A stretch of DNA of 64,000 nucleotides from Vulcanimicrobiota bacterium (GTDB lineage: Bacteria > Vulcanimicrobiota > Vulcanimicrobiia > Vulcanimicrobiales > Vulcanimicrobiaceae): the NCBI GenBank assembly GCA_963794735.1, contig CAWCFE010000002.1, forward strand, positions 2,374,141 to 2,438,140, read 5' to 3'. A program made the position numbers and the translations under genes. The notes below the pieces were generated by a model, which saw only the letters and a list, made by a program, of their open reading frames with translations, searched no databases and had not been told where the DNA came from. Below, piece after piece: positions 3,605-29,244 of the stretch (its first letter is position 1; each line of letters begins with the position of its first letter).

Positions 3605-3644
3605 CTGTTTGCGGGCGGAGGCGGGGCGCCCGCGCATGCCCTAG

Positions 3645-13465: not shown

Positions 13466-13933
13466 ATGGGCGGGCGCGACGGAGGCCAGGTGGGCGGCAA
13501 GCCAGCTACGCATGCAGAGTTTGCACTTGCGGCGCCTCAAATAGAGTTTCTCGAGGGCGTTGGTTCGTGGGTTAGCGCCGATGCCGAACACGGCGATGGC
13601 TTTGGATACGATCCCGCTTGGAGTCAACTTCCCAAGCAAGTAGCTGTTTGGGATCCACTCCTAAAGACAGGTCGCCACGGCCCCTATCAAGCGTCGCTCG
13701 CCCGCGTGGATATCAATGTTCCGCTCGCGAGCGAGTTCTCAATCTTTATCGTCTATGGTTGGGATGTCACCGGGCCGCGCATGCACTTAACGACGAGCGC
13801 ACAAGGCGCCCGATACCTGCTCGGCAAGTTGGGAGCCGGCAAGATATTCGAAGTATCCAACAAGAGCCTCTGGTCGGCAATCGCCGAGGATTTGATCGAG
13901 CAGCGTCCGCGTGGAGCGCAGAACGATGCGTAG
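13466..13933 (+). CDS. hypothetical protein
   Basis: 155-codon ORF; start uncertain. Confidence 0.35.
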   Translation: MGGRDGGQVGGKPATHAEFALAAPQIEFLEGVGSWVSADAEHGDGFGYDPAWSQLPKQVAVWDPLLKTGRHGPYQASLARVDINVPLASEFSIFIVYGWDVTGPRMHLTTSAQGARYLLGKLGAGKIFEVSNKSLWSAIAEDLIEQRPRGAQNDA

Positions 13934-15143
13934 ACTCGCGGTAATCGCCGTATGCATCGTTTTTGCTGCTTCAGGATGTTCTCCGAGTCCCGCTGACATC
14001 GCCTCGCTGAATCTTCCACAGGGAATTCCGGCAACGATCAAAGCTGATTCCGCAGCGCCGAGCGTTACACTAAGCTACTACGACGTTGCTCCCAAGACGA
14101 GCCAAGCAGAATACTATGCAAGGGGTTTGGCTATTGGGTCGGATGGCAACGTCTGGTTCGACGTCACGACGCAAAACTATATGTCCTCCGAGTTCTTAAG
14201 GGTCTCTCCAAGCGGCACAGTGCTGGGCAGTTATCCCCTATCTGGAAGTTGTGCTGGCCAACTCAATTGCAGGGGCGTGGTCGCCGGCCCAGATACCGCG
14301 ATATGGTTCACGTACACAGTCCCATTAGCGCCGTACGGCCGCTCATGGAAAATCGGCCGGCTTAGCACTGCGACTGGAACGCTAGGACAACTGAGCAAGT
14401 ATAGTGTCGCGCGCGTCTTTTCAAGTACTTACGGCACCTCCGCAATGACCGTTGGCTCCGATGGAGCTGTCTGGGCGTTGGAAAACCGCCCGAATCTTGC
14501 GAGAACGGCAACGGGCGGCGCCAGCGGTCCTGTCGGCAAGTCAAGTCAGTTCGCAATCCATTTTTCGCATCAGGTTGCGCAATTCGATCCGCCGATCGTG
14601 TCCGGCCCCGACGGTGCGCTTTGGTACTCGTTGCCGGCGGTCCCGCCGCCCTCGGGTCCTAAATGCTCGATACCTTACGTCGGCAGAACGACGACTAGCG
14701 GCGCCACGACGACCTATGCAATTCCACCGGGCCGATTCGGGCCAGGCTGCGACGGGGTACTGCTTGCATCGGGATCCGATGGGAACGTGTGGTACGCCGA
14801 CGACTACAACTACGATTTCTGCCGAATGACGACGGCGGGCGTAACCAAGAAGTGCTACTTCTACGGCAATACGTTTTGGGGCAAAATCGACTCAAATTTC
14901 TTCGATCTCACAGTCGGATCGGACGGAGCGTTTTGGGGAATCACGCATAACGGCTATTGCCAAAACTATCTCGTCAGGGTTACGACTAGCGGCTCATTCT
15001 CGTCGTATCGGCTCAAAGGCGTATTCCCAACCGCGATCGTGAAAGGCGGGGCGAACGATCTCTGGATTGCAGACCAGGACCAAGCCGGCGAATGCAACAG
15101 CGGAGGCGGCGAGAGCGCCGGTTTGGTTCACGCGGTACTATAG
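13926..15143 (+). CDS. secreted lipoprotein with Vgb-like (streptogramin-lyase-type) beta-propeller repeats
   Basis: Lipobox FAASGC. Repeated GSDGNVWF / GPDTAIWF / GSDGAVWA / GPDGALWY / GSDGNVWY / GSDGAFWG. Confidence 0.65.
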   Translation: MRRLAVIAVCIVFAASGCSPSPADIASLNLPQGIPATIKADSAAPSVTLSYYDVAPKTSQAEYYARGLAIGSDGNVWFDVTTQNYMSSEFLRVSPSGTVLGSYPLSGSCAGQLNCRGVVAGPDTAIWFTYTVPLAPYGRSWKIGRLSTATGTLGQLSKYSVARVFSSTYGTSAMTVGSDGAVWALENRPNLARTATGGASGPVGKSSQFAIHFSHQVAQFDPPIVSGPDGALWYSLPAVPPPSGPKCSIPYVGRTTTSGATTTYAIPPGRFGPGCDGVLLASGSDGNVWYADDYNYDFCRMTTAGVTKKCYFYGNTFWGKIDSNFFDLTVGSDGAFWGITHNGYCQNYLVRVTTSGSFSSYRLKGVFPTAIVKGGANDLWIADQDQAGECNSGGGESAGLVHAVL

Positions 15144-15721: not shown

Positions 15722-16156
15722 ATGCTCAAGCGCGTGATCGTCGGATCCGATGAAGCTGCGGAGATCTTCAACTCCGATGAACCGTACGCTGTCATCTCCT
15801 TCGTCGACTCTTGGCACGGGCGACGCCCTACGCGAATCCAACACCCTCCAACCTTGCTGGGCCGTATTGTGGTGCGCGCGGATGACTGCGAACCCGGCGC
15901 TAATCTGACCAATCTGCCCGACTTGATTGCGTTATCAGAGAAGGACGCCCGTCGCGTAGCTCGCTTCGTGCGCCGCCTTGCGCCCCAGATTGAAACCCTG
16001 CTCATCCATTGCCGTCACGGTCTCGGGCGCTCTCCGGGGGCGGCGATCGCCGTCGCCAGAGCCTATGGCCTCCCCCGAAAAGGTCTCGCCGCCTGGCCGC
16101 GTTGGCCGAATCCGCACGTACGACGGTTGTTGGCACGCGCGTTAAGAGCGCTCTAA
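15722..16156 (+). CDS. Cys-based protein phosphatase-like protein (HCX5R signature)
   Basis: HCRHGLGRS P-loop signature. Confidence 0.6.
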   Translation: MLKRVIVGSDEAAEIFNSDEPYAVISFVDSWHGRRPTRIQHPPTLLGRIVVRADDCEPGANLTNLPDLIALSEKDARRVARFVRRLAPQIETLLIHCRHGLGRSPGAAIAVARAYGLPRKGLAAWPRWPNPHVRRLLARALRAL

Positions 16157-17017: not shown

Positions 17018-18250
17018 ATGGCTAAACGACGACGAGTCAAAGGCGAAGGCACGATCGTCAAACGCAAAGACGGCCGCTTCGAGTCGAAAATCTCGCTTGG
17101 AATCGTAAACGGCAAACGAATCCGTAAGACTGTTTACGGAAAATCTCAAGCCGAGGCGCTCAAGAAGAAGCGAGAACTGGAAGCGCGCGCGGGTCGCAAC
17201 GTGCCAGATGGCAGGCTAAGCGAGTACCTCGAGCAATGGCTCCGTGACGGCAAGTCTCGCTGGGAACCGCAAACGTATCGAACGTATCTTGCATGGTTAA
17301 GGAATCACGTCTTGCCGTATTTCGGCTCGCGAAGGATAGCCTCATTGACCTCACAGGACATCCGGGTCTGGCTCCGGCAGCTCGAGGACAACGACGTTGG
17401 GCCAGTTACAAGAAAGCGTTCCTTGTCGACGTTGAAGTCCGCCCTAAAGCAGCTCGTCGACGAGGAGCTGCTCCCCAGAAACCCATGCAATCCTGTAAAG
17501 CCGCCAGTAGTTAGACGTCGCGAGTTTTACGTTCCGAAACCCGATGAGATCAAAGTCCTCTTGCACGTCGCGCAGCCGTACTGGTTCTTTGTGTTGGTTC
17601 TTGTCGCGTTCACGTGCGCTATGCGCGAGGGAGAGATCTTCGCGCTTTATTGGAGTCAGGTCGATCTCAAAGAAGGTAGCGTTTTGGTCGATCGCAGCTT
17701 GGGCGAGGACTGGAATGGCAAGCCGATTCGAAAAGAACCTAAAAACAAGTACTCGCGCAGGGTCCTGTATGTGCCACCCGTTACCGTGGCTGCTCTGCGA
17801 AAGCTCAAGGAAGAGCAGGTCAACGCCGGTTACCTTGGTCCGTGGGTCTTCCGAGATGAAGAAGGCGGACCGCTTCGGAAAAGCAATTTTATCAGGAGAC
17901 TTTGGAAGCCCCTTATCGACACCGCTGGCCTACCGTACTTCAAGTTTCACGCTGCGCGGCACGCTAGCAATTCGATCTTGATCGCGCAGGGCGAGAATCC
18001 ACTCGCAATCGCGCGCCGTATGGGTCACGCCGATACGCGCATGACGTTCGATACATACGGGCATTTTTTTGAAAATGGGGCAGTGGCTGCAAGCAAGGTC
18101 GGCCGCGCTCTGGATGAGGCCGGTGTAAATGTTGAGGCGTTCGGACTTGGTGAGCCGTTGAAAACGCGCCCAGCCACGGCGCAAGACAATAAGCGACAAC
18201 TGCCGTCGTCGAAACCCGTTTCTAGGCCCTCGCAGGGTCGAAGAAGATGA
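17018..18250 (+). CDS. int: tyrosine recombinase / phage-type integrase
   Basis: Catalytic pattern AMREGE (R), HAARHAS (HxxR), GHADTRMTFDTYGH (H..Y). Confidence 0.9.
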   Translation: MAKRRRVKGEGTIVKRKDGRFESKISLGIVNGKRIRKTVYGKSQAEALKKKRELEARAGRNVPDGRLSEYLEQWLRDGKSRWEPQTYRTYLAWLRNHVLPYFGSRRIASLTSQDIRVWLRQLEDNDVGPVTRKRSLSTLKSALKQLVDEELLPRNPCNPVKPPVVRRREFYVPKPDEIKVLLHVAQPYWFFVLVLVAFTCAMREGEIFALYWSQVDLKEGSVLVDRSLGEDWNGKPIRKEPKNKYSRRVLYVPPVTVAALRKLKEEQVNAGYLGPWVFRDEEGGPLRKSNFIRRLWKPLIDTAGLPYFKFHAARHASNSILIAQGENPLAIARRMGHADTRMTFDTYGHFFENGAVAASKVGRALDEAGVNVEAFGLGEPLKTRPATAQDNKRQLPSSKPVSRPSQGRRR

Positions 18251-18381: not shown

Positions 18382-21270
18382 GTGGACGATTCCTTAAAAC
18401 TACTAGAACCGCTTATCAAAACGCTCGCCGAGACCCTCGGGCGACACTTTGGTGGGCAGGTCCAATGGATTAGTTCTCCCGCGAAACACCGCCTTCGTGA
18501 CTCGGGACTCTGCCTGCGAGTCGACATAGATTCTGAAAACTGGCGTGGGGCCTTAACCCTGGCTCAAAGCATAAGCGCCTTGGGAATCCGAGAAATTGCG
18601 AAGCGAAAGCGAAAGTCGCCGTGGTCAGAAATCGTCGTATGCTTGGAAGCCGATAAAGCAGCAATCGCTGCCAGCCGAGAATATTTTATTCGCCTCTATG
18701 AGCTAGTTCAAAATGAGCCGATTAAAGTTTTTGTAACCCTTGAACGTTCGATCGCGCAGTTCAGTATCACGGCTTTCGGATTTCAGCTTGCCGAGGGAGT
18801 TCTGGCTGTATATGACGAGCAAACCGTTACTAGGCAGTTAGTTCGAGACGCCCGCGATATCATAGTTCGAGGGCCAGCAGAGATCCCCGTAACGCTGCAC
18901 AGTTACATCGGAAAGATTCTGGATGAAAGCCCAATTGATATTGATTTGGCCCCGGTCGGCGGAACTATCGAGTTGCCGAGGGGAACGCTGATAACGATTC
19001 CAGATTCGACGCTTGGTCCATTGCCAATCCTCAATCTTGACATGGCAGTGATGAGGCGTTCGCGCCCGGACAGTTTCGCATTTACTTACGATGATCCGCT
19101 TTTATTCAAACTTTCCAATCGCGACGGATCAGGCCTGGACCTCGACATCCTTCAAGATAGGTCGGCAGTGCCCTCGCTCGATCGTCGTGGTCGCGCTATT
19201 TGCCCAATATGCTGGTCATTGCATCAAAAAAGAGACGATTCAAGCGACGCTAGCGAGCCTTCAAATGGCCAGAGTCCTGGAGCTCGCATAACGTTTGCCC
19301 TATCTGACGGAAGTAACGCAATCGAGGAGGACGTCCCGTGCCCAAATTGCTTTGACGCGTTAACTCGCAGCGACCATCCGATCCTGCTCTCGACGATCGC
19401 GCGTGTGTTGCGAACAATTCCGGGGGAACTATCAGACTGGCATCTACTGGTGGCTGAGCGTATACGTGCCATCTGTCGAAGACTTGACCCGAAGTTCCCA
19501 GCGCTCGCCGGCAAGGAAGCAAGCCGAATCGAGGAGCTTGAGTGGCGCCTTCGCGAGAGCATTTCCGGGCTCAAAACTGAGGATGTTGTGGGGTACTTTA
19601 GACCCCTACTGGAGCTCGGTCGAGACGAGCTGGCGATTCAACACGGTCTACACTCGGCATTCAAGGAGTATTTCTATCTGCTTGGGTTGCTGGCGTCAAC
19701 ACAAGAACCGTCAGACCCCGCGATCCTAGACGGAACCAAACGTTGGCATATTAAACTTTGCTTGGAGTCACTTATCGAAGCTCATGTATCTCCCTACGGG
19801 CCGGGCTTCGGCGAGCAGTTCGATTCCCTACGGAGTGAGCAAAGAACGTTACTGAGCGCCGCCGCCTTCATTGAGGGATACTGCAACCTTCCAGCTCAGA
19901 CAACGCAGAGCGCGGTTGAAAGATTATTTAATACGGCGCTGTGGCAGGCGCGGGACCTTCCCAAGCTCATCGGCATGTCGCTTAAGGAGCTTCTCCTTGC
20001 GACGTTACACGCAATTCGGCAATCGCCTCGGCCGCCGACTGACGGCGTAGCAGCGTTATGTTGGGCCATCGATCTTACGGATTCGAGTCCTCCGATATCG
20101 AAGTACCATCGATTGTTCGATTTGGATCATCACATTACTTCGCCCGGCGAGGTGGAGTCTTCCATTGTCACGCGTTTCCACGATCGCTTTGGGATACGCC
20201 GAGGATCACATGATGGACCTCTGGCATTTGTTCAACAAAACCCCGCCGAGATGAAGCCCGTATTCTTGATGCCCGACGGAGTAGCCGTTTATCCAGAGCC
20301 AGCGGCCCTTCTTCAGTTGCTGGAGCGATGCATTGAAGGAACGTATAGAGGCACCTTTCGGAAATATTTGAATCGTCGGGGCGACCTTCTTGAATATCAA
20401 GTTGAGCGTGCCTTACAGCTACTCACACCATCCGGGTATTACAAAGACGTATTCCTTCGGCTCGGCGAGTTTCAACGCGATTTTGTCGTGGTTAGTCGAG
20501 TTGCAACGCTGTGCATTGAAGCCAAGGCCGTACTCCGGAAGTTGCAGCGGACTTCAATGCGGGAAGCCCTCTTTGACTTGAGAGATAACTTTAGGGATGG
20601 GCCAGAATTTGCCCTCGCGCAAGCTTACGACATGTCGAAAGCCCTAGAGGACCACTTTACAAACGATCACCCCTTGTACGACAGCGAAGGGTCTCAAATA
20701 TCAATCGAGCCGCTGCAAGAAGTCCGTACATACGTCCACATCGCCGTAACCAGCGAAGAATATGAAATCATGGCGGAGCGTCCGCACCTCCTCGATCGAT
20801 CGCTTCCTCCCAATAGTGTAATTGTTGCTGGCCATGAGTTCGAGTTTATCGTGGACGTCATGAATCGACTGCAGCTCGGGGTCGACGGTCTTGCAAAGTT
20901 CTTTGAGCAAAGAGCACGATTCGCGCACCTCATCCAGGCTGACCATATATATGGATGGCTTGCCGGATTCATAAAAGGCCATGGTACGTTGGAACCATTT
21001 GCCGTTGAAGGCGGCATGCGGTTCCTTCGCGGTGGCTATGAGTTTGTGAATGCGATGCAGCGAGTGTTATTCGCTAATGACTGGTCCGAGTTTGATGAAT
21101 TTATGGAGCGGGAGATCCCGGAAGAGGCACTCGCCCCGATGTGGGTAGCGTCCTGGGATGCTGCTACGATCGTTCCAACCGAGCCGTGCCCTTGTGGTTC
21201 GGGCCGAACAGCGCAAGAGTGCCATCTAGCGGCGAACCTCGCTGAGCCAGCTCCAAAAGACCGTGGATGA
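18382..21270 (+). CDS. 962-aa protein with Zn-finger pairs, a NERD-like PD-(D/E)xK core and a C-terminal SEC-C motif
   Basis: CPICWSLH..CPNCFDAL; EYQVERAL..RDFVVVSRVATLCIEAKAV; C-terminal CPCGSGRTAQECH. GTG start. Confidence 0.6.
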   Translation: MDDSLKLLEPLIKTLAETLGRHFGGQVQWISSPAKHRLRDSGLCLRVDIDSENWRGALTLAQSISALGIREIAKRKRKSPWSEIVVCLEADKAAIAASREYFIRLYELVQNEPIKVFVTLERSIAQFSITAFGFQLAEGVLAVYDEQTVTRQLVRDARDIIVRGPAEIPVTLHSYIGKILDESPIDIDLAPVGGTIELPRGTLITIPDSTLGPLPILNLDMAVMRRSRPDSFAFTYDDPLLFKLSNRDGSGLDLDILQDRSAVPSLDRRGRAICPICWSLHQKRDDSSDASEPSNGQSPGARITFALSDGSNAIEEDVPCPNCFDALTRSDHPILLSTIARVLRTIPGELSDWHLLVAERIRAICRRLDPKFPALAGKEASRIEELEWRLRESISGLKTEDVVGYFRPLLELGRDELAIQHGLHSAFKEYFYLLGLLASTQEPSDPAILDGTKRWHIKLCLESLIEAHVSPYGPGFGEQFDSLRSEQRTLLSAAAFIEGYCNLPAQTTQSAVERLFNTALWQARDLPKLIGMSLKELLLATLHAIRQSPRPPTDGVAALCWAIDLTDSSPPISKYHRLFDLDHHITSPGEVESSIVTRFHDRFGIRRGSHDGPLAFVQQNPAEMKPVFLMPDGVAVYPEPAALLQLLERCIEGTYRGTFRKYLNRRGDLLEYQVERALQLLTPSGYYKDVFLRLGEFQRDFVVVSRVATLCIEAKAVLRKLQRTSMREALFDLRDNFRDGPEFALAQAYDMSKALEDHFTNDHPLYDSEGSQISIEPLQEVRTYVHIAVTSEEYEIMAERPHLLDRSLPPNSVIVAGHEFEFIVDVMNRLQLGVDGLAKFFEQRARFAHLIQADHIYGWLAGFIKGHGTLEPFAVEGGMRFLRGGYEFVNAMQRVLFANDWSEFDEFMEREIPEEALAPMWVASWDAATIVPTEPCPCGSGRTAQECHLAANLAEPAPKDRG

Positions 21271-21419: not shown

Positions 21420-21968
21420 TCAAGACGCAATCTTCTGTCGAAGGAGCGACTCAAGACGCTGCTTTTCAATCAGCTCTCGGAAGCGCAGTTCAAGACGATT
21501 CCAAAGGTTGATCGGAATCGGTTTGGGCCGGCGCCCAATCCGTATGCTCCTTTTCATACGGTTGCCAACCAATGGAGCAATGAAGTCGGACCAAACGAGC
21601 TCGCGCACTTGCGATTCGTTGAATCCCTCCAGTCGCAACAGATCGAAAAGACTGGGGCTTCTGCCCGTGGCATCGCGCGAATATTTTGTGCGGTAAACCG
21701 GATCATATGGAATGCGTCCGCTTTCCAACGCAAATCTAAAAAAATGGCCTAAGGCCGTGACCATACGCTTTCGCACCGATCCAGATAACGAAGCCTTGTA
21801 GATTTCAATCGTTGTTTCGGTCATTACGGCTACCGGAATAGAAGCATGATCCCTTAGGAAGCGTGCCACGTCTGATCCGTACAACGAAGCGCTTCGCCCC
21901 GGCGAGTTCGATAGCCAGAGCCAATAAAGATCGGAATCAGGATGCTCAACCTTGCGCGAACGGGGCAT
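21420..21968 (-). CDS. integrase N-terminal (SAM-like core-binding) domain protein, lacks a catalytic domain
   Basis: TTIEIYKASLSGSVRKRMVTALGHFFRFALESGRIPYDPV resembles the tyrosine-recombinase core-binding domain. No R-H-R-Y region. Confidence 0.45.
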   Translation of the reverse strand: MPRSRKVEHPDSDLYWLWLSNSPGRSASLYGSDVARFLRDHASIPVAVMTETTIEIYKASLSGSVRKRMVTALGHFFRFALESGRIPYDPVYRTKYSRDATGRSPSLFDLLRLEGFNESQVRELVWSDFIAPLVGNRMKRSIRIGRRPKPIPINLWNRLELRFRELIEKQRLESLLRQKIAS

Positions 21969-22069: not shown

Positions 22070-22321
22070 GTGGCCAAGGAACAGAACCGGGACAAGTCGA
22101 CCACCAACCCGCCGGCTGTAGAGCCTTCCGAGGCCGGAGGAATGAGCATTGTGGATCAGGACACGCTGGTCAGAGAATCCGTAGATTTAAGCGAGTTTGT
22201 GAGGTTGAGCCAGGAGATCGACCCGATCGCCTTGGCCAACGAGCTTGACCAGGAGCTTGAACAGTCTTTGCGCGAGCATCGCATGCCGCCGGGGAAACTC
22301 GAGCTGGCCGTCAGCGTGTAA
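22070..22321 (+). CDS. small acidic hypothetical protein
   Basis: GTG preceded by AAGGGGG (alternative TTG at 22034). Ends 21 nt before the 530-aa gene. Confidence 0.45.
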   Translation: MAKEQNRDKSTTNPPAVEPSEAGGMSIVDQDTLVRESVDLSEFVRLSQEIDPIALANELDQELEQSLREHRMPPGKLELAVSV

Positions 22322-22342
22322 AACCGGCTCGTTCAGCGGACC

Positions 22343-23935
22343 GTGGCTATGCGGGTATGGCCCATCACCGACGCGGATAAATTCTTCGAAGCCTTCTCAA
22401 ACCGCTGGATTACGGGTGAAGAGGTTCAGCGACGGTCGAGACAGGCAAAATATCTCTACAAGTATCTGCAAAACGCGGATGTTGACGCTAAATCGTTTAT
22501 CGTCGAGGACCAATACGTCGACGGCGACTATCTGGAAGATTTCGCATCCTTCTACGTAAGCAGCTTCCCACCTTATGGGCGCTACTGCAAACGCATTCAC
22601 TTCTTCAATCAAGCACTGACTCAAGCCGAAGTGGAAGGTGTATTTTCAGGCGACGATCCAAAGGGTTCAAAAGTACTTGTAGATTCGTATGTCGGTTTTA
22701 TCGTGGCAAGACCGCTTCCCCAAGCGGTCGTTGGACGCACCGTTCTTCGGACTTACGGCGAGATCGAAGATAAGCGATGCTATCCGACTATCCGAGAGTA
22801 CAGTCCGTGCCTAAACGGCATTTCTCTTCGCGTGAAGAGTCTGGCGTTTGAGGAGCAAGACACCTCAGTGGCCGCGTGCGCCACAGTGGCACTTTGGTCG
22901 GCATTTCATAAGACCCATGACCTCTTTGGGAGCCAACGTCCGCGCCCCGCGGCGATAACTCGTGCCGCGAACATCGTTCGCTCTTTTGGTCGCGCCGTGC
23001 CCTCCGGTGGTCTTAATGCCATGCAGATGGGGGAGGCTATCAGAGCCGTCGGCCTGGAGCCTGAATATTATTCGATCACTCCGGATACGCCCGCGATGTC
23101 CTTGATCTACTCATACGTTTCTGCCGGTATCCCGGTCATTCTGGGGTGCTTCATAGAAGAATTGGGATTCCACGCCATCACGATAACTGGCTTCGCATTA
23201 TCGGCCCCAGCGGCGGCTCATCCAGAGGTGAAGTACAATCGCGTCGTATCCCGCCCCGGCATCCGGGTTGAGAAGCTGTATGCGCACGACGATGGCGTCG
23301 GCCCTTTTGCGAGTCTACCGGTACATGCGACACCTCCAGGCATATTGGATCCCTTAGGCAATCCGCTCAATCCACCGTTCGCCTTGCTTTCCGATTGGGA
23401 ATTGCCGACAGCAAAAGGCGTCCGAAGCCAAGCGTACCTTCTTCCGGACTCGGTCATCGTTCCAGCGTACGCCAAGATGCGCGTTTCCTATCTCGCCGCT
23501 CACTCGCTCGTCGCGCGTTTGATGGAGATGCTTGAGAAATTGGCTCCAGCCTTTGTAGCGCAGGGGCTCGACGTAACCAAGGTAAGCTGGGACATCAAGA
23601 TGGCTATCGTGAACCCGTTCAAAGCTTGGCTCCGCGAGAAATGTTGGGCTAACAAGGAAGCCCGCGATCTAGCCGGCGATCCGCTCCCACGTTTCCTCTG
23701 GACGTCCACAATGTACCTTGAAGATGATCCCACCTTACTGTTAGTTTCGGACGCGACCGATACGGAGCGAACTTGCCCGCTTCTACGCACCTTATGGCTC
23801 GACAGCAAGTATCGCACGCTGTTTGAAGCCATGTTTTCCGACGCGGCAATCGAAAAGCAGTGGCGCATACCCCTCACGCCGCGTTTCTATGACACTCTCA
23901 AGACGGGGCAGGCGGAATTTCTACGCAATGTCTAG
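22343..23935 (+). CDS. 530-aa protein with a papain-like Cys-peptidase signature
   Basis: EEQDTSVAACATVALWSAF (Gln then Cys), ELGFHAITITGF (His), YAHDDGVGPF (Asp), in papain-fold order. Confidence 0.5.
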   Translation: MAMRVWPITDADKFFEAFSNRWITGEEVQRRSRQAKYLYKYLQNADVDAKSFIVEDQYVDGDYLEDFASFYVSSFPPYGRYCKRIHFFNQALTQAEVEGVFSGDDPKGSKVLVDSYVGFIVARPLPQAVVGRTVLRTYGEIEDKRCYPTIREYSPCLNGISLRVKSLAFEEQDTSVAACATVALWSAFHKTHDLFGSQRPRPAAITRAANIVRSFGRAVPSGGLNAMQMGEAIRAVGLEPEYYSITPDTPAMSLIYSYVSAGIPVILGCFIEELGFHAITITGFALSAPAAAHPEVKYNRVVSRPGIRVEKLYAHDDGVGPFASLPVHATPPGILDPLGNPLNPPFALLSDWELPTAKGVRSQAYLLPDSVIVPAYAKMRVSYLAAHSLVARLMEMLEKLAPAFVAQGLDVTKVSWDIKMAIVNPFKAWLREKCWANKEARDLAGDPLPRFLWTSTMYLEDDPTLLLVSDATDTERTCPLLRTLWLDSKYRTLFEAMFSDAAIEKQWRIPLTPRFYDTLKTGQAEFLRNV

Positions 23936-24067: not shown

Positions 24068-24096
24068 TTGACATCTATTCTCCACTTCTGTAAGCT
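24068..24096 (+). promoter_or_regulatory. sigma70-like promoter TTGACA-N17-TAAGCT upstream of the XRE-ImmA pair
   Basis: Read directly from the sequence; 14 nt before ATG 24110. Confidence 0.3.
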
Positions 24097-24109
24097 TACG
24101 GATAAAGAA

Positions 24110-24448
24110 ATGAAGACATTTGGTGAGAGAATAAGGGAACTAAGAGAACAACAGGACTTGTCACTTCGAGAGCTTGCAAGACTCGTTGGAACCTCGGCCG
24201 CCTTTCTTTCGGACGTCGAACTTGGCAGGCGACATCCATCCCCGGAAGTCCTGAAAAGCATAGCTCAGAAGCTGCGAACGACCGCGAAGGACCTCCAGGA
24301 GTACGATCAACGACCGCCGATAAAAGATCTGCAGCGTCGAGCAGCGGCCAACCCTGTATATGGCACGTTATTCAGAAAAGTTCTGGAGCATGACGACCCC
24401 CAAGCGCTAATCGACTTCCTAGACCGTCGAGAACGAAAGAAGCGATGA
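24110..24448 (+). CDS. XRE-family HTH transcriptional regulator
   Basis: FGERIRELREQQDLSLRELARLVGTSAAFLSDVELGRR. ATGA overlap with the next gene. Confidence 0.8.
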   Translation: MKTFGERIRELREQQDLSLRELARLVGTSAAFLSDVELGRRHPSPEVLKSIAQKLRTTAKDLQEYDQRPPIKDLQRRAAANPVYGTLFRKVLEHDDPQALIDFLDRRERKKR

Positions 24449-25146
24449 AGACGCGCCGCACAAATATCGGACCGTTCAAGGAGCGGCCCTTCTACTCTCT
24501 TGAAGAAATTGAACGGATGTGCTCCGACGAACTTCAGAGTGTCGGCCTTTATCCAACCAGCCCTGCTCCCATTCGAATCGACAGATTTCTCGAAAAGCGC
24601 TTCAAGATAAACGTTTCATACGAAGACCTGCCGCGAGGGATCCTTGGCTTTACCGAATTCGGCAGTAAAGGGCCCGCCGCGATTGTTGTTTCGAAATCGC
24701 TAGATGATGGCAAGCAGAGTTCGGAGCGCCGGATTCGCACTACTTTAGCGCATGAAGGTGGGCACGGTCTGCTCCACGCGCACCTGATGGTCATGGCTCC
24801 CCAAACAATCACTCTCTTCGAAGGGGACCGTGGCACGCAGCGTCCCAAGATTCTGTGTCGCGAGGACGGGCCCTCGAACGTGCGAAGCGCGAAATACGAC
24901 GGCAAATGGTGGGAATTCCAGGCCAATCAGGCAATGGGGGCGTTGTTGCTTCCAAGAAGCCTTGTCGAGGAAGCATTGCGCGAGTTACTGGTCTCGTCCG
25001 GGTCCTTTGGGAGGTCTACAATCGCGCCGGCGCAGCGCGCGGTAGCCGCGGAAATTCTTTCGCAAACATTCGAAGTCAACCAAGTTGCGGCTCGCCTCCG
25101 CCTGGACACGATTTTGCCCAGCGCCGACAGGCAGTTGACACTCTAA
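24445..25146 (+). CDS. ImmA/IrrE-family zinc metallopeptidase
   Basis: HExxH motif in TLAHEGGHGLLHAH. Coupled to the XRE gene. Confidence 0.75.
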   Translation: MKTRRTNIGPFKERPFYSLEEIERMCSDELQSVGLYPTSPAPIRIDRFLEKRFKINVSYEDLPRGILGFTEFGSKGPAAIVVSKSLDDGKQSSERRIRTTLAHEGGHGLLHAHLMVMAPQTITLFEGDRGTQRPKILCREDGPSNVRSAKYDGKWWEFQANQAMGALLLPRSLVEEALRELLVSSGSFGRSTIAPAQRAVAAEILSQTFEVNQVAARLRLDTILPSADRQLTL

Positions 25147-25630: not shown

Positions 25631-25900
25631 TTGGACTTCATCCACGCCCGCGAATATCTTCAGGGGGGTGACGTCGTGATCGTCAACTGTTCGCACCAAT
25701 GCAACGCACTTCTTACAGACGACTTCAATTTTTCTTCATATCAAAGCGGCGGGCAGTTCCATTACTACGGCGGCCACTACAAACAGTTTCCAGTCCGGAT
25801 TGTAGTTCCGTCGGCGGGGTTCTGGAACGTAACGATCGATCTCGGCGGGGGGGCCGCGCAGATTCGCTATAACATCTCGTACCTCAAGAAGGCCAGCTAA
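25631..25900 (+). CDS. DUF1883-like protein
   Basis: GDVVIVNCSHQCNALLTDDFNFSSYQSGGQFHYYGG..VPSAGFWNVTIDLGG fits my recollection of DUF1883. TTG start after GGGAGG. Confidence 0.5.
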   Translation: MDFIHAREYLQGGDVVIVNCSHQCNALLTDDFNFSSYQSGGQFHYYGGHYKQFPVRIVVPSAGFWNVTIDLGGGAAQIRYNISYLKKAS

Positions 25901-25929
25901 TACACAAACCGGATCCTCATTACTGCTCA

Positions 25930-25973
25930 ACAGTTTAGACGCCGCCTAGATACGCTCGAAAGCGGCGCATCAG
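25930..25973. repeat. ACAGTTTAGAC (inverted copy) ... GGCGCATCAG (direct copy) upstream of the Ubl gene
   Basis: Partners of 25589-25609. Confidence 0.6.
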
Positions 25974-25991
25974 TTGCAAACAAGGTGTAGC

Positions 25992-26306
25992 ATGGAACAA
26001 GAACGTCAAGCCAAAGATGCACGGCTCCTCGGAGTCGCAGTCATCACTCCTTCAGGAACCTTTCCTGGCGAAAATGATCTACGCAAGGCCGAGCCCGACG
26101 AGAAGGTAGAGGTCGTCCTCAAAGCAGCTGCGGAGGCCCTGGGGCTTACTAACACCTCGGACTGGGTCGCATCCGTTGACGAGCGAGACATTAATCCATC
26201 GCATACCTTTCGAGAAGAAGGGTTAACTTGCGTCGTCGAGATTGAATGGCACAAACGGGAGGGCGGCGGTGGCTCATCCGGAAATATCGAAGCGGCTCTT
26301 CGATAA
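25992..26306 (+). CDS. ubiquitin-like (beta-grasp) protein, BilA-like, with GGGG plus a 10-aa C-terminal tail
   Basis: 104 aa ending ..IEWHKREGGGGSSGNIEAALR. Sits directly upstream of the E2/JAB/E1 genes. Confidence 0.65.
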   Translation: MEQERQAKDARLLGVAVITPSGTFPGENDLRKAEPDEKVEVVLKAAAEALGLTNTSDWVASVDERDINPSHTFREEGLTCVVEIEWHKREGGGGSSGNIEAALR

Positions 26307-26700
26307 GGACGTCGCCGCCCTCACGGAGGAAGCCGCCAAGAGTCTTCGGTTCGCCGTCAATTCCAAGGAGTTTCCGACGCTCGATGTCACCGTCGAGCAC
26401 TCGAAGCCGATTCGGTTGCGCTTCCAGTGCGAGGACTGGGACGACCAGCCGCCATCAATAGAGTTACTCAATCCAGACGGAACGGCATACGACGGAACGA
26501 TGCCGTCAAATAACGTCTTCAATGGCGCCGCCCACCCCAAAACCGGCAGGCGATTCGTCTGCATGCGGGGATCGCGAGAGTATCACACGCATCCGAGCCA
26601 CGTGAACGAATCGTGGGGCGCCTATCGCGGGCAAGACGGCATGAACGTTTGCGGAATTCTTATGCAACTGGCTCGGTCCTGGCGAAAAGGTATCGCATGA
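26269..26700 (+). CDS. prokaryotic E2-like ubiquitin-conjugating protein, BilB-like
   Basis: AAHPKTGRRFVCMRG (HP..loop + Cys) and WDDQPPSIELLNPDG. GTG 26269 lies 6 nt after GGGAGG (alternative TTG at 26242). Confidence 0.7.
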   Translation: MAHPEISKRLFDKDVAALTEEAAKSLRFAVNSKEFPTLDVTVEHSKPIRLRFQCEDWDDQPPSIELLNPDGTAYDGTMPSNNVFNGAAHPKTGRRFVCMRGSREYHTHPSHVNESWGAYRGQDGMNVCGILMQLARSWRKGIA

Positions 26701-27167
26701 GAAAGGTCCTATGCCGTGGCGCAATAATCGAAGAAACTTTAGAGAGTCTCCGTTCCGCGGGAAACCATGGCACCGAAGGCGTTGTCATGTGGCTGTCCAA
26801 CGGAATCCAAAGTCCGATATCCATCGCCGAGATCTTTGTCCCTCAGTACAGTGCCGGGGAACTATATTTCGAAATACCACCAGATGGAATGCGGGGGCTT
26901 ATGCGGTATTTGAGGGCGAAGCGGCTTGCCTTAGCCGTTCAAGTCCACTCGCATCCTCGTCGTGCCTTCCACTCCTGGTTCGATGATCGTGATGCTGTAC
27001 CCAGGCACGTTGGCGCCCTATCAATAGTGGTACCGCGATTTGCCAATCACGTGAGCATAAACAACTTTAAACGCGTATGCGCTTTCTATCGCCTGAGCGG
27101 CGATAACCATTGGCTGCGAATTCTCCGAAACGATTTGTCGGACTACTTCGAGATTGAAACGCCATGA
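26697..27167 (+). CDS. JAB/MPN (JAMM) metallopeptidase, BilC-like
   Basis: TEGVV (Glu) and HSHPRRAFHSWFD (HxHx7Sx2D). ATGA overlaps on both sides. Confidence 0.85.
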   Translation: MRKVLCRGAIIEETLESLRSAGNHGTEGVVMWLSNGIQSPISIAEIFVPQYSAGELYFEIPPDGMRGLMRYLRAKRLALAVQVHSHPRRAFHSWFDDRDAVPRHVGALSIVVPRFANHVSINNFKRVCAFYRLSGDNHWLRILRNDLSDYFEIETP

Positions 27168-28507
27168 ATCCGCAGCGAGAGAATCATCTAACCGTCGCAA
27201 AACTCCTCGGTATTGCCGAAGACGAGGCGACCGAGCGACTTTCCCGCCGAGTCGTCATCACTGGTACGGAAGATTCAAGAACGTTATGCACCGAATTGCG
27301 CGATCAACTCGAACGCACGCTGACTATAGTTGAGGGGATTGATGCAGACGTGGAGGTGGTTCTTGGTGACGAACCGAGAACAAACGCGCGTACGATCTTG
27401 TACGTCAGGATCTCGTATGACGGCGTGACCGTTGCTAGTCAAGGACCGGCTACTATGGAGCAAGGCGTTCATCCGCTTCTAGTAGCGATTGGCGCCTGCT
27501 ACGTCGCGTCGAGTGTCACAGAAGCCGCGGTAGGCATTGGCAAGGGTGCGGGCCTGCCACTCAATATCCAGTTCGCGGATCTTGGAGTCAGCAACGAACT
27601 GCTCGCAGTGCCGGTATTTCTTCGCGACGCCGCGCTTGCGGGAGCCGGAGCGGTTGGCAATGCCTTTCTACGAGCCCTCCGTCACCTCAAACCCTCCGGG
27701 TCCCTAACCGTCGCCGATCCTAAGCGCGTAGCGCCCGGAAATCCAAATCGCTGCCTCTACTTCGACAATGCTAGCGTGGGCAAATGGAAGGCCGAGGAAC
27801 TCTGCGAGCGGGCGAAGGCTGATTTGTTCGAGCTTAAGCTGGAGCCATTCGTCGGTACGCTTACAGACTTGGCGAGAAGACTGGGTCGAGTTCGCCGAGT
27901 CATAGTAGGGACGGACAGCCGCCGCGTAAGGCGCACTATTCAAAGCGAAATTCCGTTGGAGGTTTTGGACGCCTCTACGACCGGAGTCGACGAGGTCATT
28001 GTCCATTCGCACAGGCAACCCACCGGGGCGGCTTGCCTCTCCTGCATCTACCGGCACGTCGACGAAGAGAACGCTCTTGAAAAGGATATTGCCGAAGGTT
28101 TAGGCATCGACGTATCCGATATTGAAAAGGGACTTATTGATGAAGAAGTCGCCAACAAAATTATTGCAAGCCACCCCGGCCTAGAAAAGAACGAAATCAT
28201 AGGCGTGGCATTCGACAGTCTATTTCGCCGTGTTTGTGCCGCTGCGGCTCTTAAACTTCCAACTGGCGATCAGGTGTTCGCGCCGTTCGCCTTTGTTTCG
28301 AGCCTCGCGGGAGCGCTGTTGGCAATAGAGCTGCTAAGATTCGACTCCGAAGTGCCGCCGAACACGAATTACTTCGTTGCTAACCCATGGCGGCCGCCAA
28401 ACCCGATGATGCGGCGGAGACGACCCAAGGTGCCCGACTGCGTGTTCTGTTCACGACCTGAGATTATCGAGGCCATGAACTGCGTATGGGCGGACGTACT
28501 ACAATAA
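27164..28507 (+). CDS. E1-like ThiF-family adenylyltransferase, BilD-like
   Basis: LAGAGAVGNAF Rossmann loop, GNPNRCLYF, GTDSRRVRR, and CLSC / CVFC pairs. Confidence 0.8.
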   Translation: MNPQRENHLTVAKLLGIAEDEATERLSRRVVITGTEDSRTLCTELRDQLERTLTIVEGIDADVEVVLGDEPRTNARTILYVRISYDGVTVASQGPATMEQGVHPLLVAIGACYVASSVTEAAVGIGKGAGLPLNIQFADLGVSNELLAVPVFLRDAALAGAGAVGNAFLRALRHLKPSGSLTVADPKRVAPGNPNRCLYFDNASVGKWKAEELCERAKADLFELKLEPFVGTLTDLARRLGRVRRVIVGTDSRRVRRTIQSEIPLEVLDASTTGVDEVIVHSHRQPTGAACLSCIYRHVDEENALEKDIAEGLGIDVSDIEKGLIDEEVANKIIASHPGLEKNEIIGVAFDSLFRRVCAAAALKLPTGDQVFAPFAFVSSLAGALLAIELLRFDSEVPPNTNYFVANPWRPPNPMMRRRRPKVPDCVFCSRPEIIEAMNCVWADVLQ

Positions 28508-28511
28508 AACG

Positions 28512-28874
28512 ATGCTAAAGCTCATCGCCGATCTCTGGAAGGCGCTGCTCGATTTTGCCCTAGGTCTATTAGGCGCTGGAGCAAAAAGCCCGACGATCGG
28601 CGCCCGGCGCACCGTCACGATCGCGAAGTTTGATCGAATCACACCGGATCCACCGCCGATGCACTGGTCGCCGTGTCACCCGTCGACGATTCAACGGTTC
28701 AAAGCGTCCATGACCTGCCCACGCGGACACAGTCTGACACTGAAAAGCCATTCCATCCTCGTCGACGGCCGTGTTCAGCCGAGCGTGATCTGTCCTCATC
28801 GCGGCTGCGATTTTCACGAGTTCATTCGGCTCGAAGGATGGGATTATTCTGTACCGCTCCAGGGTCGTTACTGA
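28512..28874 (+). CDS. 120-aa protein with an N-terminal hydrophobic helix and a Cys/His cluster
   Basis: Starts 4 nt after the E1 stop. MLKLIADLWKALLDFALGLLGAG; CPRGH..CPHRGC. Confidence 0.5.
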   Translation: MLKLIADLWKALLDFALGLLGAGAKSPTIGARRTVTIAKFDRITPDPPPMHWSPCHPSTIQRFKASMTCPRGHSLTLKSHSILVDGRVQPSVICPHRGCDFHEFIRLEGWDYSVPLQGRY

Positions 28875-29168: not shown

Positions 29169-29244
29169 TGGTGGAGATGAGGAGACTCGAACTCCTGACC
29201 CCTTACATGCGAAGCAAGTGCTCTACCAGCTGAGCTACATCCCC
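29169..29244 (-). tRNA. tRNA-Ala (anticodon CGC), CCA encoded
   Basis: The reverse complement is GGGGATGTAGCTCAGCTGGTAGAGCACTTGCTTCGCATGTAAGGGGTCAGGAGTTCGAGTCTCCTCATCTCCACCA. It folds as a cloverleaf with a G3:U70 pair and anticodon loop TTCGCAT. Confidence 0.95.

Follow-up and report, generated by a model that had tools for sequence, protein, structure and literature searches.

A widespread two-gene unit pairing a predicted papain-fold cysteine peptidase with a conserved-tail partner, and its linkage to bacterial ubiquitin-like operons

Introduction

What could be the role of a gene pair that belongs to no named family and is carried in a bacterial genomic island next to a ubiquitin-like conjugation operon? 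The question is raised by a stretch of 64,000 nucleotides (nt) from a Vulcanimicrobiota bacterium (contig CAWCFE010000002.1, positions 2,374,141 to 2,438,140 of the forward strand), here called the window. In it a small acidic protein and a protein of 530 amino acids (aa) are encoded one after the other at positions 22070 to 23935. An initial annotation of this locus, made without database searches, had proposed a papain-like enzyme with a small partner and had raised the idea of a functional link to the neighbouring ubiquitin-like system. Bacterial ubiquitin-like pathways (Bil, Bub, and Cap2/Cap3 of CBASS) are recent discoveries, and to our knowledge neither the targets nor the output of Bub are known. 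The reading that we favour, with a confidence somewhat short of even, is that the pair encodes a cysteine peptidase or isopeptidase that is active and whose obligate partner docks by its tail, and that this mobile cassette serves as a co-regulated accessory protease arm of operons for ubiquitin-like proteins (Ubls) and also stands alone.

Results

The small gene (22070..22321, forward strand) was recognised as an open reading frame (ORF) from its translation and from homologous small ORFs upstream of nearly all relatives of the large gene. It can start at GTG 22070 (83 aa), which is preceded 8 nt upstream by a purine-rich GGGGG stretch, at TTG 22034 (95 aa) or at ATG 22142 (59 aa). Its stop codon, TAA at 22319-22321, lies 21 nt before GTG 22343, the start of the large ORF, and the isoelectric point of its product is 4.3-4.5. 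The ORF calls and the isoelectric point agree with the earlier description of an acidic small ORF ending 21 nt before a 530-aa gene. The large gene (22343..23935, forward strand) is predicted to encode a cytoplasmic papain-fold cysteine peptidase; the database version of this protein has 528 aa and starts at ATG 22349. The gene pair is a two-gene unit that is very widespread and so far unnamed. It was found that neither protein has a match among the models of Pfam, NCBIfam, PADLOC and PHROGs, and the absence of any PADLOC-DB v2 family for either one supports the statement that no named defence system has this layout. Sequence and profile searches against the PDB returned nothing, each of the 304 word-sharing homologues of the large protein is labelled 'hypothetical', and a literature search, which led to papers on Bub and CapK/CapS, found no description of the gene pair. 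An exhaustive HMMER search put the family of the large protein at 3,644 clusters (50% identity) for E <= 1e-3 and at 1,246 for E <= 1e-30.

With the homologue alignment as input, AlphaFold2 gave one compact model of the large protein, with a predicted local distance difference test score (pLDDT) of 92.4 and a predicted template modelling score of 0.92. Foldseek matched this model in the PDB, in order, to prostaphopain B and staphopain (probability up to 1.0), IdeS/Mac-1 (0.92-0.97), the C39 domains of PCAT1 (1.0) and ComA (0.85), BpJOS (0.91), which is a Josephin-type ubiquitin clippase, AvrRpt2 and calpain. Since the model matches the staphopain, IdeS, C39, Josephin and AvrRpt2 folds, the large protein can be assigned as a papain-fold cysteine peptidase, as had been proposed from the sequence. 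The catalytic core (about aa 166-331; 22838..23335), placed by Foldseek, residue invariance and codon positions, contains Gln172 (22856-22858), Cys179 (22877-22879), His277 (23171-23173) and Asp316/Asp317 of a His-Asp-Asp triplet (23288-23293), within three motifs located at positions 170, 273 and 313 of the 530-aa sequence. The order of a Gln seven residues before a Cys, then a His and an Asp, which the initial annotation had read as papain-like, is indeed present, and these residues are invariant in 43 homologues that are 36-55% identical to the protein of the window. Distant plasmid homologues, one of them at 27% identity, keep the Gln, Cys, His and Asp-Asp as well.

The core is framed by two lobes. 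The N-terminal lobe (about aa 1-165; 22343..22837), supported by invariant alignment columns, carries the motifs E..Y.D..YL.D, R.H-F-F and G-F..-R-P-L-P with invariant residues, and many invariant residues were found in its first 130 aa in the 43-member alignment. The C-terminal lobe (about aa 332-530) extends over 23336..23932. Neither lobe (~165 and ~200 aa) has a significant structural match in the PDB or BFVD, in line with the earlier remark that the flanking regions could not be assigned; BFVD returned generic papain- or CHAP-like domains and nothing closer. No signal peptide is evident in the sequence of the large protein.

Family C39 of clan CA (Pfam Peptidase_C39_2, PF13529) invites comparison. 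The two share the papain-like fold, as seen in the Foldseek matches to PCAT1 and ComA, a Gln-x-Cys motif on the N-terminal helix (C-A-T-V-A-L-W here, C-S-P-T-S-V-S-M in PF13529 members) and a His strand of the form G-H-a-h-h-h-x-G-F/Y followed by an Asp. On the other hand, the enzyme described here is three times larger and has two extra conserved lobes and an obligate small partner. It also differs from the C39 bacteriocin-processing peptidases in having no conserved ABC exporter as neighbour and no double-glycine leader substrate; a test for a C39-type double-glycine leader found no GG motif in the partner. PF13529 gives no hit for the window protein at its gathering threshold of 24 bits. 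Near-full-length hits below the threshold occur in 7 of 43 and 4 of 10 relatives, the best reaching 20.4 bits, and a PF13529 search of the window's genome leads to a different gene. In an hhalign comparison with 14 true PF13529 domains from related genomes the His strand alone was aligned, with a probability of 5%. Because of the scores below threshold and this hhalign result, the protein was filed as a new clan CA family and not as a member of C39. The large gene would accordingly represent a new family of the papain superfamily, nearest in its modelled fold to C39, C47 and C70, with two family-specific lobes around the core.

The small partner is conserved in a different manner. Its N-terminus is variable among loci, whereas the last ~40 residues comprise a helical, charged stretch and, after it, a conserved tail. 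In the window this tail, HRMPPGKLELAVSV followed by the stop codon, is encoded at 22277..22318 (forward strand), as located by alignment and by a tail-pattern test. It shows alternating hydrophobic residues, and the ORF ends at a fixed register. Over the last 12 residues the pattern is roughly V-S/T-Q-E-x-L-x-x-x-V/F-S-V and then stop. Among 82 pairs, position -12 is V or I, -11 S or T, -10 mostly Q, -9 E or D, -3 V, I or F and -1 V, I or L; L stands at -7 in 65 pairs and S at -2 in 61, and the stop follows directly after -1. The strict pattern was found in 22 of 48 upstream ORFs as compared to 1 of 7,942 other ORFs of at least 40 codons at the same loci. In almost all of 53 genome loci the large gene is preceded, at a distance of 0-80 nt, by the end of an ORF of ~55-90 aa; the loci come from Acidobacteriota, Eremiobacterota, Planctomycetota, cyanobacteria, Pseudomonas, Stenotrophomonas, myxobacteria and one archaeon. 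In a metagenome set of 80 independent loci, 76 have enough upstream DNA, and in ~73 of these the tail-bearing small ORF is present. Co-occurrence of the two genes, on which the initial annotation had staked its proposal, is thus seen in the metagenomes and in most of 48 genome loci.

About 45 conserved residues are common to the small protein of the window and the partners of close relatives (50-56% identity). Distant subfamilies, whose enzymes have a different C-terminal lobe, carry other partner tails (...IRFR, ...KLVK, ...TCSL). That the tails differ together with the enzyme subfamily points to co-evolution of the two proteins. No third conserved gene was found across the loci, no natural fusion of small and large protein among the longer family members, and no DNA-binding domain of the small protein in library scans.

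Such a tail also recalls substrates and tags. The small protein could be a Pup-like modifier, disordered or helical, or a peptide precursor, with an enzyme that trims, transfers or removes its tail. Its length of 55-90 aa, disordered N-terminus, helix and fixed-register C-terminus resemble Pup, a small and mostly unfolded protein with a conserved C-terminus beside the ~500-aa enzymes Dop and PafA. Papain-fold enzymes can be acyltransferases, Peptidase_C39_2, the nearest model, has such members, and E1 enzymes are often nearby. Nevertheless, we consider this very improbable. The pair has no sequence or fold relation to Pup, Dop or PafA and no ATP-using domain; most loci have no E1; the tail ends in Ser-Val/Ile and not in Gly; and no natural fusion or evidence of processing was found. 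The Gln at -10 is variable and is replaced by Pro in the window. As this Gln is not conserved, a transglutaminase-type reaction on it is unlikely as well.

Do the two proteins touch each other? In the window and at 11 other loci both ORFs are in the same frame, so that a read-through translation, in which the stop is read as Gly, can be used as a fusion model. The read-through alignment had 12 paired rows and 39 enzyme-only rows, the single chain taking the place of the complex. The partner helices of this model have pLDDT 68-85, and a loop of the N-lobe (aa 63-82) rises from 57-67 when the enzyme is modelled alone to 91-95 when the small protein is in the model. Covariation was scored by mutual information with average product correction on the 82 pairs, in the 528-aa numbering, where the catalytic His is His275. 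In the top-ranking pairs, positions -5 and -3 of the tail go with residues 274 and 266, which lie beside this His, and tail position -8 was paired with residue 368. Gains in the fusion model and covariation are leads to a contact between the modelled partners and not proof of it. An analogy is the adenovirus protease (adenain), where a short C-terminal partner segment, pVIc, docks as a strand on a cysteine protease; it has no sequence or fold relation to the pair.

On a plasmid of P. aeruginosa the pair lies directly after a Type II Bub operon under CapP/CapH control. Further cases were detected with hidden Markov models built from the E1, helix-turn-helix (HTH) and M78 genes of these loci. 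Of ~62 loci from genomes, plasmids and contigs, 9, the window among them, have an E1/ThiF gene near the module, as have 19 of 80 metagenome loci. Among the 48 loci with at least 4.5 kb on both sides of the module, 12 (6/36 plus 6/12) have an E1 gene within 4.5 kb as compared to ~0.2 expected, since the same E1 model hits 2 ORFs in the 3.94-Mb genome of the window. The distance from E1 to the module is 0.4-3.9 kb. The linkage to Ubl operons is recurrent and closer than chance, as would be asked of an accessory component, and it is facultative. Comparative genomics supports the functional link to the ubiquitin-like system that had been put forward as an idea only.

The linked operons are of several kinds. 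A CEHH-JAB-E1 operon is found in the window and at locus L090, Type I Bub at L040 and L118, Type II Bub at L063 and a JAB-ThiF-DUF6527 fusion at L113. A Multi_ubiq Ubl with a small E2-like protein and a JAB-E1 fusion, without DUF6527, is present at L133, L116, L132, L101, L139, L100 and L080. A Bil-like cassette, in which a Ubl and a 110-aa protein are combined with a JAMM protein (~170 aa) and a ThiF (~280 aa), is present at L015, L021, L089, L095, L098 and others.

Some features of these operons deserve mention in their own right. At L113:2381-4225 (reverse strand) a single 614-aa protein combines Prok-JAB, ThiF and a BubE-like DUF6527, so that the peptidase, E1 and serine-protease parts of Bub are fused. 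The four-gene cassette (L015:3266-5317, L095:5102-7012 and L089:1275-3262, all on the reverse strand, and L021:8463-10088) has a Ubl-like protein of 85-128 aa ending in GGSS, and Pfam recognises none of its first three genes; it looks to be a branch of Bil-like systems that has escaped annotation. The Ubls of the linked Bub- and Bil-like operons end in Ser and not in Gly (...DDNS, ...GTIS, ...TPVS, ...GGSS, ...TDKS), as at L133:5409-5687, L063:1755-2504 and, on the reverse strand, L101:6402-6743, L139:6601-6909, L095:6755-7012 and L015:4931-5317.

Two simple ideas were rejected. The partner tail could have been a mimic of Ubl tails, but the linked Ubls end in ...GGSS, ...DDNS, ...TIS or ...DKS, and the putative Ubl of the window in GGGG with an extension. 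The enzyme could have filled in for a missing deubiquitinase, but in the linked cassettes the JAMM signature H-x-H...S-x-x-D is present both in the ~170-aa proteins and at the N-termini of the E1 fusions. The linked operons keep their own JAMM peptidases, and hence a simple replacement role is unlikely. The peptidases already known in these pathways, JAB/JAMM (BilC, BubC, Cap3) and the DUF6527 serine protease BubE, resemble the enzyme in lying in or next to the same operons and in having Ubl precursors or conjugates as possible substrates. They differ in sharing no homology with it; linked operons retain their own JAB and some also DUF6527, and the pair also occurs without any Ubl operon.

Four arrangements recur. 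The Ubl operon may be divergent from [HTH][small][big]; the order may be [HTH][M78][small][big]; [E1][small][big] may lie on one strand with a gap of ~420 nt; and [small][big][HTH]...[E1] is the order seen in the window. The pair often follows a CapH-like repressor, with or without CapP. CapH and CapP are carried by 31% of Bub operons (PMC11601596), and CapP normally sits beside the CapH HTH gene (PMC11601596, PMC13373217). The pair shares a niche with these controllers of CBASS, Bil and Bub, as at several loci it follows a CapH-like HTH gene, divergent from the Ubl operon, at the place of CapP.

Such a placement would fit a small-protein-gated peptidase that, like CapP, cleaves the adjacent CapH-like repressor on stress and thereby turns on the Ubl operon. 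The order [HTH][small][big] is found at L015, L040, L089, L095, L118, L139 and L144, the last being a 2.1-kb contig on which the HTH gene and the module alone are visible. At the first six the unit is divergent from the Ubl operon, and in the [HTH][small][big] loci no M78 gene was found beside the HTH gene, the usual place of CapP. However, CapP is an M78 zinc metallopeptidase, and the enzyme here is a Cys peptidase with a partner and without an M78 match. A CapP-like M78 gene is present as well in the window and at L004, L063, L090, L098, L100, L101, L106 and L123, most loci have no HTH gene adjoining the module, and at L116, L132 and L133 the pair follows the E1 gene in the manner of cargo. 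We therefore hold a role as regulator of this kind to be quite improbable.

The history of the link was read from a tree of 89 enzymes. On it the E1 label has to change 13 times, and well-supported branches force at least 9 of these gains or losses; for shuffled labels the number is 17.5. The window belongs to a 14-member clade with 9 E1-linked and 3 unlinked members. Tree changes and clade composition indicate that the Ubl link is real, is old or has been re-made repeatedly, and is facultative.

Away from E1 genes the neighbours of the pair include Hachiman, MmeI-type restriction-modification, nSTAND, Cas1, SLFN/AlbA and UvrD/methylase genes. The module is present in 2 of 61 related genomes and on 4 plasmids, and the family of the large protein is spread patchily over many phyla. 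No homologue was found by tblastn in phage records. The gene pair is a mobile cassette of defence islands.

This distribution bears on the possibility that the pair is a stand-alone toxin-antitoxin or abortive-infection unit, in which a toxic peptidase is held in check by a labile acidic inhibitor whose tail plugs the cleft. Infection or damage would remove the inhibitor, host or phage proteins would be cleaved, and the association with Ubl operons would come from nothing more than common islands and regulators. In agreement with this, the two genes are tightly coupled, the small one leading, the distribution is patchy, and the majority of copies lie without an E1 gene among Hachiman, restriction-modification, nSTAND and Cas1 genes or on plasmids. 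Staphopain (C47) and staphostatin provide a precedent for a co-encoded cytoplasmic inhibitor of such a fold. The best structural matches of the enzyme (1x9y, 1y4h, 1pxv) are of this system, and conceptually the two are alike, in that a cysteine protease and a small protein that attaches to it in the cytoplasm are transcribed together, with this binding a supposition in the present case. Staphopain carries a prodomain and is secreted; staphostatin is a beta-barrel whose gene lies downstream. In the present pair, in contrast, the partner gene lies upstream and its product is predicted to be helical and to end in a tail, the enzyme lacks a signal peptide, and inhibition is conjectural. Against a purely independent unit speaks the enrichment of E1 operons of about 50-fold, at 0.4-3.9 kb, in fixed operon-like arrangements and with four kinds of Ubl system, and the small protein has no DNA-binding domain of the sort typical of type II antitoxins. 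We judge this explanation to be rather unlikely.

The island of the window extends over ~12 kb from a tyrosine integrase (17018..18250, forward strand; Pfam Phage_integrase, 1.2e-15) at its left end to a tRNA-Ala gene (29169..29244, reverse strand) at its right end. Its content of guanine plus cytosine is lower than that of the flank and changes from ~0.54 to 0.65 past tRNA-Ala. A 962-aa protein (18382-21270, forward strand) has a weak match to the nuclease-related NERD domain (E = 0.0024), a C-terminal SEC-C motif and no other family, and is possibly another defence gene. The gene before the pair had been described as a truncated integrase-like gene. This 182-aa ORF (21420-21968, reverse strand) has no Pfam hit and compares with the island integrase at E = 0.74 (tblastn), so the description found no statistical backing in these searches; by eye the ORF resembles the N-terminal SAM-like domain of tyrosine recombinases without the catalytic domain and is possibly an integrase remnant.

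Starting 132 nt downstream of the gene pair are a CapH-like XRE repressor (24068-24448; PADLOC capH 3.5e-16, and Pfam) and a CapP-like M78 peptidase (24445-25146; PADLOC capP 1e-9, and Pfam), both on the forward strand. The XRE-ImmA pair reported at this place is accordingly of the CapH/CapP type. The ubiquitin-like conjugation operon follows (25631..28874, forward strand), as read from Pfam matches and sequence tails, with DUF1883, a putative Ubl of 110 aa, Metal_CEHH, Prok-JAB, E1-N/ThiF and a Cys-rich 120-aa protein; among its genes no E2 was recognised. The putative Ubl (25974-26306, forward strand) has no family or fold match; it was taken as a Ubl because its end, ...REGGGG, is followed by a 10-residue extension, SSGNIEAALR. 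If it is a Ubl, it would be a precursor, and a peptidase would be needed to expose its Gly C-terminus. The Cys/His-rich 120-aa protein after the E1 gene (28512-28874, forward strand) has CPRGH ... CPHRGC motifs, is zinc-ribbon-like, has no family match and may close the Ubl operon. Just outside the island lie a beta-propeller protein of the Vgb lyase family (13911-15143, forward strand) and a small protein (15722-16156, forward strand) with weak similarity to dual-specificity phosphatases.

Discussion

The present study describes a gene pair of which the large product is probably an active cytoplasmic cysteine peptidase or isopeptidase, as judged from its modelled fold and invariant catalytic residues. 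It would depend on the product of the small gene directly before it, the two forming an obligate pair. This partner may be built from a variable N-terminus, a helical hairpin and a strand-like conserved tail, with its free carboxylate at a fixed register. It could dock with its helices on the N-lobe and with its tail adding a strand close to the substrate cleft or to the strand that bears the His. A tail docked in this way could gate or direct the peptidase, whether as inhibitor, cofactor or adaptor. The pair seems to have joined Ubl conjugation operons (Bil-like, Bub and CEHH-JAB-E1) many times, often in what may be the same transcription unit as the damage-responsive CapH switch, with or without CapP. 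There it would most likely be an accessory protease arm that could act on one of the components, conjugates or targets of the Ubl pathway, and it would be able to work alone too. The defence-island setting, with adjacency to Ubl operons in about a quarter of cases, suggests a protease arm that has gone unrecognised.

Several points weigh against this proposal. The tail has a pLDDT below 50 in the fusion model and the docking site is consequently left undefined by it; it could be that the 8-residue linker blocks docking, which would make this an artefact. The covariation comes from 82 related pairs and was scored without a phylogeny-aware control. The complex of partner and enzyme is one that we infer, from models that are single-chain. 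About three quarters of the long-flank loci have no E1 nearby, for which reason the Ubl link has to be called facultative, and part of it could stem from shared islands and shared CapH/CapP control. Every linked Ubl operon has its own JAB peptidase, so there is no obvious vacancy for another. Additionally, the partner tail is unlike the C-termini of Ubls.

A more specific possibility, unlikely in our estimate though deserving of some weight, is that the small protein is a pseudo-substrate or tag-like element outside the beta-grasp fold, whose free C-terminal strand is read by the peptidase, and that the two form a protease switch in ubiquitin-like immunity. In one form of this idea the peptidase would be set free once the Ubl machinery has modified or displaced the small partner. 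In another, the peptidase would edit Ubl conjugates under the control of the partner. Should either be true, bacterial Ubl pathways would gain a so far undescribed proteolytic effector or editing arm.

New here are the partner's conserved tail, the family size, the frequency of linkage as compared with a background estimate, and the catalogue of arrangements. The pair appears to define a new papain-fold peptidase family in which the enzyme has an obligate partner with a conserved tail. If it should instead be an independent toxin-antitoxin or defence module based on a protease, it would still be widespread and new. The family has thousands of members and has repeatedly been joined to at least four kinds of Ubl operon, often under the same DNA-damage switch. 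It is this repeated joining that makes the pair a concrete candidate for the missing effector, editor or regulator of bacterial ubiquitin-like pathways.

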